Virus record (IMG/VR): IMGVR_UViG_3300002301_000042
Span: 1-34,315 of that record
Origin: a virus
Taxonomy: Duplodnaviria > Caudoviricetes
DNA: 34,315 bases
Strand: one strand, 5' to 3'
Shown here: one piece after another, positions 9,792-31,111 of the stretch
Layout: each line of letters begins with the position of its first letter
How positions within the stretch are numbered: position 1 is the first letter of the stretch
Notes under the pieces: generated by a model
Databases searched by the model: none
Told to the model about the DNA's origin: nothing
What the model saw: the letters and a program-made list of their open reading frames with translations, nothing else
Position numbers and translations under genes: made by a program

Positions 9792-11525
9792 TTAGAATAA
9801 TTGGCTAGCGTACAGTGAAGTACATAGCTGGTTTCTGATGGCAGTGTCTTGAGTTAAAGCCTGCGCTTGTGCAAACTTAACGGCAAGAGTAGCGTTTTGA
9901 GCAAGCATGCCGGAATAGTAAGGGTCACGGTAGATCAAGTTCATGGAATATCCATCTTGATTTATGTGAGTAAGAGCTTGCTTACCGAGGACTGTATTGT
10001 AATACACGTCTTGTCCGTTAGCAGATGCTCCCCTTGCTACTGGGGCTTCTGAGGATGTTAAGATCCTAATATTGAACACGTTACCGTACTCTGATGGAAG
10101 TGCGGAGGTGTTATTAGAATAATCCCATTGGTTCTTGAATCCTTGTCCAAGCAAACCATCAAAGTCAGTTTGTAGCTCTGTAGAAGACAACATAAAATAT
10201 GAGCTTCTTACAGGGCCTGTCAATTCTGTTACTTGTTGACCTATTGCTAGGCGGGCCAAATCTTCTCAGCTGGCCTCTCACGCTTTCGTCATGAGTTCAG
10301 AGCACCGCATCTTTGCTTCTTTAACCAATTCGTACATAGCATCATAATCTTCTTGATCCCAAGCACCTTCTGCATGTGCTCTTTTCAATGCTCTGTCCCA
10401 AATTTTGAAAGATTTAGCAAAGTCTTCTCGCTTGCTTCGTTCAGGCTGTATTGGACTAGATAACTCGTCATTTGATACTGAATATTCACACGGAACCTTT
10501 TTCCAAGAGTTACTCATTCCATATCTATAATCATCGCCCATAACTTGCCCCTTGTTGTCGCCGTCTTTACGCTGCGAGTTCCAAGTCTATCAGAGAAGAT
10601 TTTAATTCGGCACACTTTCTACCGAATCTGTCCTCGCCTTCAATACCTGACATAAATTTGTAGGCATTGTTGGTATCCAAAGTTGTTGCTACTAGAGAAA
10701 AATCTGATATCCCATAGTTAGTAGGGTTATCATTATTTGATCCCCCACCGCAATTTATTTCCGCATTCTGTTACTTGTTGACCTATTTCTAGGCGCATAA
10801 GTCTTCTCAGCTTATGTCTCTATGTTTCCATAGAGTTCAGAGTACCGCATCTCAACCATAGAGCATACAAATCAAAGATATCTCGATCTGTCTATCCATG
10901 AATTCTTTGCTAAATTCTTCTGTTGAGTCTTCTCGCTTACTTCGTTCAGGGTCTAAATGAGCCTTATAGTTTTCTGAAGTAATTCCGGTGTCATTAAGAC
11001 AACCAATTAATCCATGCGCTTTAAGATTTTCCATTCTTTTACTCATAAAGTTCCCCCTTGTTGTCGCCGTCTTTACGCTGCGAGTTCCAAGTCTATCAGA
11101 GAAGATTTATCCTGCGCCATCATTAACGCAGCGGAGACGATATAGTCTCTAAGAATAAGATCCTCGGCCTGTCTCATTGCGACCGCAAGTCTTTCGCTTA
11201 CCCAAGCCAATACACCTTCTTGGTCTTGTAAAATTACCTGCTCGTTGATGACGCAGCCAGTACCAAAAAAAGCCATTTGTGCATCTATGATGTCACGTTG
11301 TGGCACTTGAGCAGGAGGATCAATACCGCTATTACCGAGTTGTACGGTAGGAGGGGTAAGAGCCTTCGGCCTCATAAAGCGACAAGTAGTTCCACCGTTA
11401 GGAGGCATACTGATCTTGTCAGCTGGTATGATATAGTTCATTGTTGGCGTAGGCACATAGAGCATAGCAGGCGCGAGCGACTGTAGGATCATAGGGCCTA
11501 GACTGCCAGTTGTAGTAATAGACAT
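9792..11525 (-). CDS. Major capsid protein (N4 gp56-like), spliced: exons 11525-11126, 10763-10621 and 10220-9792; 323 aa
   Basis: Position after the scaffold gene with AAGGA RBS. Exon lengths 400+143+429=972 nt give one open frame with junctions VSAA-S-EINCGGG and EGEDRFG-TGPVRSSYF. Confidence 0.88.
10221..10620 (-). ncRNA. Group I intron 2 in the capsid gene (400 nt)
   Basis: P1 TTCGGT|..GCCGAA with U-G at the splice site; P3 TCTTCTC/GAGAAGA; P7 GA(A)GCA/TGCTC; P8 CTTTGCT/AGCAAAG; P9 hairpins with a GCAA loop; terminal G at 10221. Confidence 0.88.
10278..10541 (-). CDS. Small intron-internal ORF (87 aa), unknown function
   Basis: ATG 6 nt after AAGGGG; crosses the ribozyme core (PERSKRED); no nuclease motif. 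Confidence 0.3.
   Translation of the reverse strand: MGDDYRYGMSNSWKKVPCEYSVSNDELSSPIQPERSKREDFAKSFKIWDRALKRAHAEGAWDQEDYDAMYELVKEAKMRCSELMTKA
10621..10763 (-). CDS. Capsid exon 2 (143 nt), absent from the ORF track
   Basis: Reads (S)EINCGGGSNNDNPTNYGISDFSLVATTLDTNNAYKFMSGIEGEDRFG without stops, in the frame required by both junctions. Confidence 0.88.
10764..11125 (-). ncRNA. Group I intron 1 in the capsid gene (362 nt)
   Basis: P1 CTGCGT|..GCGCAG with U-G at the splice site; P3 TCTTCTC/GAGAAGA; P7 GA(A)GTA/TACTC; P8 CTCAAC/GTTGAG; P9 CTCTATG-GAAA-CATAGAG; terminal G at 10764. Confidence 0.88.
10852..11046 (-). CDS. Small intron-internal ORF (64 aa), unknown function
   Basis: ATG 6 nt after AAGGGGG; crosses the ribozyme core (PERSKRED); no nuclease motif. 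Confidence 0.3.
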   Translation of the reverse strand: MSKRMENLKAHGLIGCLNDTGITSENYKAHLDPERSKREDSTEEFSKEFMDRQIEISLICMLYG

Positions 11526-18061: not shown

Positions 18062-18586
18062 TCATGAAATCTTGTTGCTTTTGATAACTCGATATCCATT
18101 ATTTTCCAATAGATTTTTGGCCCATTCAATGTGATCCTCTAATCTGCATCCATTAGGTTGGTGAGTAGACCACAATTCGAGATTTTCTATGCGATTATCG
18201 TCCCGTATTCCATTTTTATGGTGAACATTCTCACCCTCTTTTAGAGGTCTTCCTAAATGTTCAGACATCACATGAATATGTTCAAATATTGCATGTTTAT
18301 CACTCATCTTATTTGGATGATTTCGTACAGTTATGATTCTATATCCATTGTGATTGATGTGACCTTCTCCTCTAGAAGCCCTCAATTTTACGTCCAAAGG
18401 TAGATTGTTTTTTATTCTATAAGCACGTCGTCTTTTTTCCAGGTATTCTTTATGCTTTTCGGGATTGTTTTTGAAAAATTCTCTATTCGCACATGAGGCA
18501 CACATATTTCCATTTCTTCTGTCTCTTTGCACGAGAATCCTAGTACATAAAGAACAATCAATCCTGATCTTTTTCCTAGTCTTCAT
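18062..18586 (-). CDS. HNH homing endonuclease
   Basis: [38 protein letters not shown]; N-terminal CxxC..CxxC; ATGA overlap with the terminase stop. Confidence 0.9.
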
Positions 18587-30367: not shown

Positions 30368-31111
30368 ATGAAAATTCTTAAAAAGAAAAATGTAGACAAT
30401 GAATTTATAAATATAGATTTTGAATCTTTTGAAAAATACATCCAATCTATCGCCGATCACCAGGAAAAAAATGGATTTATTAATTTCATATATATGAAAG
30501 ATTATTTGAAATTCAAAGAATTGGTAAAAAAATTTTCATGGAGAATCGTCTATCATTCATTCATGTTTCATCTGTCCACAGATCCAAAGGCAACTTTGAT
30601 GGTCGAGCATTGCTGCGATAAGTGTAACGAAGTAACATATGACAAGTTGACAAAGTTAGAATTTTTTGAATTATTTTCAGAAGATAGAAAGAAAATATAT
30701 AGATGCTATAAATGTAGCTGGAAACTAGAAGAGAACTCAAATAACTATATTGAGAATTGGCTTACTCCTGACAATGATTGGTTTAAAGATGTTGAAACGG
30801 ATCAAATAATAACAATAGAAGACAAATGGACAGCTCTCAATGATGTAAGAAAAACTAGGGATCTTGATGAAGAAATGATCATAAATCATGCTAAAAAAAT
30901 GAAGTATAAAGATTTTTTAAGAACTCTGTATTGGAAAGTAGTTTCCATGAAAAAGAAATCTGACTTCTTTTTTAGATGCCAAATGTGTAATGGGACTAAG
31001 ATGCTCTCAACTCATCACAGAACTTATGACATAATAGGAAAAGAAATGTTGAACATGCAGGATTTAACGGTTCTATGCTCAAACTGCCACGGAAAACATC
31101 ATGAAAAATAA
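30368..31111 (+). CDS. HNH-domain protein
   Basis: C-terminal YKDFLRTLYW..CQMCN..HHRTY..DLTVLCSNCHGKHH. Confidence 0.8.
   Translation: MKILKKKNVDNEFINIDFESFEKYIQSIADHQEKNGFINFIYMKDYLKFKELVKKFSWRIVYHSFMFHLSTDPKATLMVEHCCDKCNEVTYDKLTKLEFFELFSEDRKKIYRCYKCSWKLEENSNNYIENWLTPDNDWFKDVETDQIITIEDKWTALNDVRKTRDLDEEMIINHAKKMKYKDFLRTLYWKVVSMKKKSDFFFRCQMCNGTKMLSTHHRTYDIIGKEMLNMQDLTVLCSNCHGKHHEK

Follow-up and report, generated by a model that had tools for sequence, protein, structure and literature searches.

Predicted group I introns in a phage major capsid gene keep the capsid frame open and end it in an ssrA-like Ala-Ala tail, a likely degradation mark on products of unspliced RNA

The window analyzed here is a whole stretch of 34,315 nt from a Caudoviricetes record (IMGVR_UViG_3300002301_000042), a phage record of approximately 34 kb whose annotation contains portal, terminase, helicase, recombination and tail-fibre genes. 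A major capsid gene lies on the minus strand, between a probable scaffold gene, so named from its position, and other virion genes; all capsid-gene features given below are on this strand. Its open reading frame starts at 11525 in the window translation and is interrupted twice. Exon 1 (11126–11525) comprises 133 codons and one nucleotide, and intron 1 (10764–11125; 362 nt) accordingly enters in phase 1 after 400 exon nucleotides; exon 2 (10621–10763) is 143 nt long; intron 2 (10221–10620; 400 nt) enters in phase 0; and exon 3 (9792–10220), which runs to the stop codon, matches PHROG 1357 (E = 2.4e-7). When both introns are removed in silico, a single open frame of 323 amino acids results. The capsid homologs match the PHROG 1357 major head protein, with Pfam Phage_capsid_4 scoring below or just over its cut-off, and an AlphaFold2 model of one uninterrupted homolog had a mean pLDDT of 38, too low for the model to be used. 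The boundaries of intron 1 are confirmed by DNA contigs of two runs (X3 and X4), which omit exactly 10764–11125 and represent an intronless allele; for both introns the spliced frame aligns without gaps to uninterrupted homologs, and the boundaries of intron 2 are predicted from this alignment. The intron 2 site is the most often occupied of the intron family (18 introns). Elsewhere in the window, ORFs of HNH-type endonucleases lie at 1697–2524, 18062–18586 and 30368–31111, two of them overlapping the ends of the helicase and terminase genes. A scan of the window for promoters and terminators returned signals at shuffle level only, and no tmRNA was found within its 34 kb.

By anatomy, namely a P1 with a U-G pair, covarying P3, P4 and P7 and a terminal G, these elements are classed as group I introns, with self-splicing putative. 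In both window introns the 5' exon ends in a U that pairs with a G in P1, and the intron ends in G; since our intron caller required the U-G pair and the terminal G, the presence of these two features in the 179 homologs described below is no test. P3 is paired in 177–179 of the 179 homologs at each of its seven positions, with U-A/C-G swaps, and P4 in 160–165 of 165 parsed introns. P7 has the guanosine-site G-C in 95 of the 97 canonical introns and in 81 of the 82 extra-bulge introns, and the positions next to it covary. The extra-bulge P7, found in 82 of the 179 homologs, has an added bulged base after the guanosine-binding G together with a C-G to G-C swap, and 76 of these 82 introns have a long P6 insert. 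Both window introns are of this type. The core of intron 1 spans 10838–10945 (P7 5' strand with the extra bulge, 10945–10936; P3', 10934–10927; P7 3' strand, 10846–10838), and that of intron 2 spans 10298–10440 (P7 5' strand, 10440–10431; P3', 10429–10422; P7 3' strand, 10306–10298). Rfam returned no group I match for the window introns at the gathering score or up to an E of 10, and we assign no group I subclass because this subfamily is not covered by the Rfam model. Each intron carries a passenger ORF without a family match: that of intron 1 (10852–11046; 64 aa) starts in P6 and runs through P7 and P3', and that of intron 2 (10278–10541; 87 aa) lies in P6/P8. Both begin just past P4', preceded by GGGG as a Shine-Dalgarno-like run, and continue across the catalytic core.

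If intron 1 is retained, the capsid frame crosses the junction at a leucine codon (U|UA), avoiding a stop there, and continues into the tail LMMAQDKSSLIDLELAA and a stop codon (11073–11125), for a product of 150 amino acids; this tail is encoded by the P1 loop, P3, P4 and P5 of the predicted fold. If intron 1 is spliced and intron 2 is retained, the frame closes on RKCAELKSSLIDLELAA and a stop codon (10567–10620), for a product of 198 amino acids. The initial annotation had claimed that both read-throughs end in KSSLIDLELAA, with stops at 11075–11073 and 10569–10567, and that the difference in phase is compensated by 17 versus 18 nt before a block shared by the introns; window translation and in-silico splicing bear out the tails and stops, and the phases and spacings match base for base. 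These two copies by themselves prove little, because the shared 61-nt block is 97% identical between the introns and the copies are not independent. The accompanying caveat that two copies would fall in the same frame one time in three by chance is fair for the window alone; the homologs depart from chance by far.

Homologous introns were collected from viral, metagenome and genome collections with locus search patterns built on P3/P4 and P7, the tag being excluded, and at least 340 unique anchors were obtained among the matches listed, 259 of them with P1 and P3'. Alignment of the spliced junction with uninterrupted homologs gave an independent host frame for 180 introns; one of these (L042:1144), whose 3' site was inconsistent, was removed, leaving 179. 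The KSSLID register is kept in 152 of the 179 splice-confirmed introns (among the matches listed) and at 62 of 78 insertion sites, against an expectation of one third, and in 127 of 153 introns after de-replication at 85%. The site count keeps one wrong merge, of codons 11 and 123, which were split for the position test. The 79 of 259 candidates without spliced-homology confirmation stand outside the main counts; a frame could be set for 38 of them by the open-frame rule, 24 of these being in register, and 41 had no frame. To stay in register, the family had to reset it for three phases and for P1 lengths of 15–36 nt. The junction codon is UUA or UUG in 12 of 12 read-through phase-1 introns, whereas 118 of the 128 other read-through introns have A as their first base; in phase 1 this base would create a stop. 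The aligned junctions thus establish, at the level of sequence, that P1 length is retuned to each insertion site and phase and that junction stops are avoided. One subgroup (L056, L064, L048, L183, L197, L207, L242 and L325) has no tag in the usual register, at a site without a confirmed coding frame.

Of the 179 introns, 140 are read through, and every one of the 140 tails has at least 15 residues. Eighty-eight end in AA and 19 in xA (107 in Ala altogether), and the 33 with a non-Ala terminus fall into a V/A-V/A-x-S/N class (24; for example, VAYS and VVFN) and a remainder of nine; LAA is the commonest end triplet (52 tails). Random entry frames or the lack of AA-stop in introns at other sites had been named at the outset as the outcome that would speak against a degron, and neither was found. 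In the same RNA register, AA occurs in only 7 of 39 unread introns compared with the 88 of 140 read-through introns (Fisher 5e-7; at site level, 3 of 22 versus 40 of 56), although such P values overstate independence because the intron tree is too poorly resolved for independent-pair tests. In this intron-core tree (173 rows, 152 columns), 13 of 169 branches are starred and read-through changes state at least 26 times; an independent-pair test on it yielded four supported pairs and was not significant. Ancestry also contributes to the tags, as is seen from the AA of those 7 of 39 unread introns and from the 14 of 26 in which J6/7 remains in register.

Whether the frame is held open depends on where the intron sits. 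Among capsid sites, read-through occurs at 1 of 10 at or before codon 55 and at 52 of 54 after it, a cut-off that was picked after the data had been seen, with 50 and 60 giving similar counts. In portal genes, six of six introns at codons 26–51 stop early and two of two at codons 337–355 read through; the two deep portal tails are VALS and QAAL, neither of which is AA. It is thus established for the sites compared, as judged from their predicted frames, that read-through is found where the fragment would exceed approximately 55 residues and that early sites use the textbook immediate stop. In an anchor-free survey of capsid ORFs, which overlaps the main homolog set, AA is the end of 122 of the 213 ORFs cut short at model positions 56–299 and of 1 of the 19 truncated earlier. 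Of 77 natural capsid ends, 2 are AA and 23 are Ala; they replace a first background of AA ends (23/462; 19/473), which was discarded as contaminated by other tagged introns. Among 80 loci fetched by capsid protein, 63 are uninterrupted and 15 of 15 distinct truncated tails end in AA, these loci being close relatives with at least two contigs already in the other set. Untagged deep introns were also found: another major head protein (PHROG 9953) has four, all at a single site, and ribonucleotide reductase has two, for which the frame was set by the open-frame rule only; the reductase exception fits a rule confined to structural genes, but the head-protein exception does not. In tape-measure genes, related introns with predicted splice sites (L149, L150, L155, L194, L202 and L282, and also L277) stop at the junction (U|AA), and the exon supplies a tail of GALAA, GASAA, GAVA or GALVA directly before that stop.

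The tag occurs in five locations: P5, J6/7, the P1 loop, coreless mini-introns and the +1 frame of the next exon. Short introns have a second AA-stop at P6'/J6/7, whose UGA lies in the host frame in 25 of 28 introns when the ribosome gets there and in 4 of 19 with an earlier P5 stop (4 and 2 rows, respectively, were left unparsed), and the loops just upstream of this stop often add ssrA-like residues (EQYALAA, EHFALAA). In two introns, L329 and L200, it is the P1 loop that carries the tag; L329, which is not in register, reads KNHYALAA-stop in this loop and EALT at its P5 tag. ESLAA is the end of an intron of another type, in a different gene. Long stop-free sense frames with an AA end at P8/P9 run through introns at L005:876-1499, L026:2273-2830 and L330:1723-2433 (minus strands), possibly as a second, back-up tag.

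The coreless capsid inserts are 28–79 nt long overall and consist of a P1 hairpin and a terminal G. At the capsid site FFG|TGC (L510–L539), a search with a P1-like pattern ending in G found 23 distinct inserts of 32–79 nt that have no core motif and lead to AA (17) or VA (6) ends. Twenty of them have no stop of their own; they come in eight lengths, all 2 mod 3, and reading of the next exon in +1 then gives xAA- or xVA-stop in 20 of 20. A +1 stop at the same exon position is present in 6 of 77 intronless genes and in none of the three inserts with their own stop. These 20 inserts may share one origin, with indels that all kept the frame. A full intron lies nearby in 17 of the 23 cases versus 12 of 77 capsid genes without the insert; for the other six, none was detected within 3 kb. 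We regard the coreless inserts as candidates for splicing in trans. In the capsid-protein set, 19 short inserts passed the cut-offs (score ≥40, P1 ≥6 bp), 11 of them ending in AA, and most other candidates were partial fits within full introns. Further coreless inserts are found at L004:1536-1565, L035, L274, L346, L342, L026, L067, L184 and L301 and at L328:1696-1649.

Taken together, these observations make it likely, in our judgement, that the introns leave the capsid frame open through their 5' portion and terminate it in an ssrA-like Ala-Ala tail that marks fragments made from unspliced RNA for a host protease reading ssrA, probably ClpXP. ClpX is described as binding the terminal Ala-Ala-COO and as needing a tail of approximately five residues or more (PMC7652416); a free C-terminal Ala-Ala is present in both window tails and in the 88 homolog tails, and all 140 tails are long enough to reach ClpX. 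In the mechanism that we propose, a ribosome would arrive at the junction before splicing, unwind P1–P5 and terminate; the released fragment would carry an unstructured handle of 15–20 residues and be cleared by ClpXP or a related protease, and the RNA could then refold and splice. Long capsid and portal fragments might otherwise enter and block virion assembly, and the tag would cut the cost of introns in highly expressed structural genes. The initial annotation had proposed such a degradation tag against assembly-poisoning capsid fragments; the homologs support that reading, and its poisoning step is favoured indirectly by the dependence of read-through on insertion position.

The tail could instead be selected as a peptide for some other end, such as recognition by another protease (Tsp/Prc, FtsH, Lon or ClpAP/ClpCP), lower expression at termination, or a role as a timing device or protease decoy. 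The 24 non-AA nonpolar tails (VAYS, VALS, VVFN) would suit such an end, as would several mini-intron tails that end in V, I or C, the host being uncertain; but the dominance of AA and of the LAA triplet, and the likeness of the de novo tails EQYALAA, DYALAA and KNHYALAA to YALAA, the ssrA end given in the literature, speak against them, and if the tag were a decoy or a timing device its loss at early sites would not be expected. We consider these other ends rather unlikely.

Selection might also act on where the ribosome stops, a fixed point of termination in P5 aiding intron folding or coupling to the passenger ORF in P6, with the residues incidental. Ribosomes are described as chaperones of T4 intron folding (PMC3073962, PMC3984707), and 107 of the 179 introns contain an internal ORF, most of which start 60–79 nt past the anchor, just beyond the P5 stop. 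Yet the place of the stop varies among the P1 loop, P5, J6/7 and exon 2, introns that lack an ORF have tags too, as do coreless inserts, and positioning would require a stop rather than GCN-GCN and leaves the dependence on fragment length unexplained, which makes this reading improbable. Of 102 passenger ORFs scanned, 95 have no PHROG match, three are endonuclease VII-like, one is HNH and three belong to families without known function; none of the 107 ends in AA, and the tag is therefore not a remnant of a homing-endonuclease (HE) fusion.

The initial annotation had cautioned that these codons are also constrained by P4/P5 structure. This holds for the KSSLIDLE part, which is RNA structure (P3 and P4 pair in nearly all introns), and fails for the AA tail, given its synonymous variation, its varied fold positions and, most decisively, the coreless inserts. 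The 67 AA tags in P5 comprise 17 synonymous codon sets, all three stop codons, 40 DNA haplotypes and four lengths, a variation counted among AA tags only and hence partly conditional, and the AA codons fall in the stem, the loop or the 3' strand of the P5 fold, depending on the variant. That P3/P4 fix KSSLIDLE, that P5 and P6'/J6/7 happen to spell AA-stop and that the register is inherited, as a by-product of RNA structure and common descent, is a reading that we hold to be very improbable and largely refuted by the sequences: it has in its favour the structural KSSLIDLE, the J6/7 motif as core sequence, the one block shared by the window copies and the retained tags of some unread introns, but codon positions 1 and 2 give Ala with a variable third position and a variable stop codon (subject to the condition just given), the AA codons change their place in the fold, the register must be reset for each phase and P1 length, and coreless inserts and exon codons are free of ribozyme-core constraint and therefore count against it.

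The comparison of codons and locations thus establishes that the predicted frame ends in a nonpolar, mostly AA tail, with free synonymous codons, at several unrelated places. Selection on the tail at the peptide level is strongly supported by these sequence comparisons because of the dependence on fragment length, the 15 of 15 AA tails against 2 of 77 natural ends, and the diversity of codons and sites. Beyond the likely ssrA-like mark itself, we lean, by a small balance, towards a broader proposal: phage introns would have arrived repeatedly at a prokaryotic form of surveillance of unspliced mRNA, placing an ssrA mimic on their own failure product from any free sequence (P5, J6/7, the P1 loop or the alternative frame of the next exon) and only where the fragment harms assembly. 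Such surveillance would let capsid genes hoard introns, including coreless inserts of 28–79 nt that need excision in trans by a neighbouring ribozyme.

As for the host, 5 of 400 further Chlamydiota genomes contain a match to the capsid exon (a strong one in three of them), against 0 of 400 further genomes for each of two control phyla; these matches may be misbinned contigs, and the host is uncertain. Neither the capsid exon nor intron 2 had a match in a collection of cultured phages, so that no isolate-based host can be named. The tmRNA tags of four Chlamydiota assemblies end in QAAA, LMAA, EEAA and LVAI, and the chlamydial ClpX is reported to degrade a VAA-tagged reporter (PMC7468207).

LittleE and Tuc2009 (PMC3706429) and the crAss-like Delta/Zeta phages (PMC7886860) are described as having group I introns in structural genes, those for the capsid included, and in some cases more than one intron in a gene. 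The accessible text of the former contains neither "unspliced" nor "truncated", and no unspliced products or tags are discussed in the accessible text of either; introns within tmRNA genes (PMC11915505) are, from the text available, a separate matter. The fate of the truncated protein from group I introns is not mentioned in the accessible parts of reviews of phage and bacterial introns. We found no report of an intron-encoded ssrA mimic in the full-text literature searched, mostly without subscription journals or supplementary files; the intron-encoded degron as a kind is already known from HAC1, and we could find no prokaryotic precedent.

If the tail is a degron, prokaryotes would have a built-in clean-up of unspliced products analogous to that of HAC1, the tolerance of introns in the most highly expressed structural genes would be explained, and the cost of a self-splicing intron would become directly measurable by an AA-to-DD change. 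The approximately 100 naturally evolved C-terminal tails may serve as probes of protease specificity and provide a design rule for intron-based expression switches.

The T4 td intron and similar group I introns are described as having an in-frame stop just inside the intron (PMC3073962, PMC3984707, PMC8565351), and in reviews this junction stop is said to keep ribosomes out (PMC3073962, PMC3984707). As in that type, unspliced RNA of the present family would yield a truncated protein with its stop in the intron, and members at early sites are alike in this respect. Members at deep sites do the opposite of the junction-stop rule: the junction stop is avoided, and the ribosome would run 45–110 nt into P3–P5/P6 to a selected tail. 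This amounts to apparent peptide-level selection inside a catalytic RNA, and the selection apparently extends to synonymous codons of the host exon. In the engineered SIBR system, as described in the text available (PMC8565351), an SsrA tag follows the intron and is carried by the spliced product, which is the reverse layout.

The phage tail resembles the tmRNA/ssrA tag, as described in PMC7652416 and PMC9382460, in placing a C-terminal Ala-Ala, mostly Leu-Ala-Ala, on an unstructured tail of an incomplete protein. It differs in that it is written into the DNA, closes at an ordinary stop codon and involves neither a stalled ribosome nor addition in trans by tmRNA and SmpB, and the window tail is without the upstream SspB-binding part of ssrA. 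The nearest functional precedent is the intron-encoded degron of yeast HAC1 (Di Santo et al. 2016, PMC5114014). There, according to the accessible text, unspliced mRNA gives a truncated protein whose short intron-encoded C-terminal tail targets it for destruction, and the window is alike in that the tail is encoded in the retained intron and does not appear in the spliced product. The HAC1 case concerns a single regulated eukaryotic gene, with protein-catalysed splicing and a Duh1-dependent degron demonstrated by experiment, whereas the phage case is a mobile ribozyme family at approximately 78 sites in phage structural genes, with a bacterial ssrA mimic and putative degradation, and is best regarded as a functional analogue of HAC1 rather than a member of the same system.
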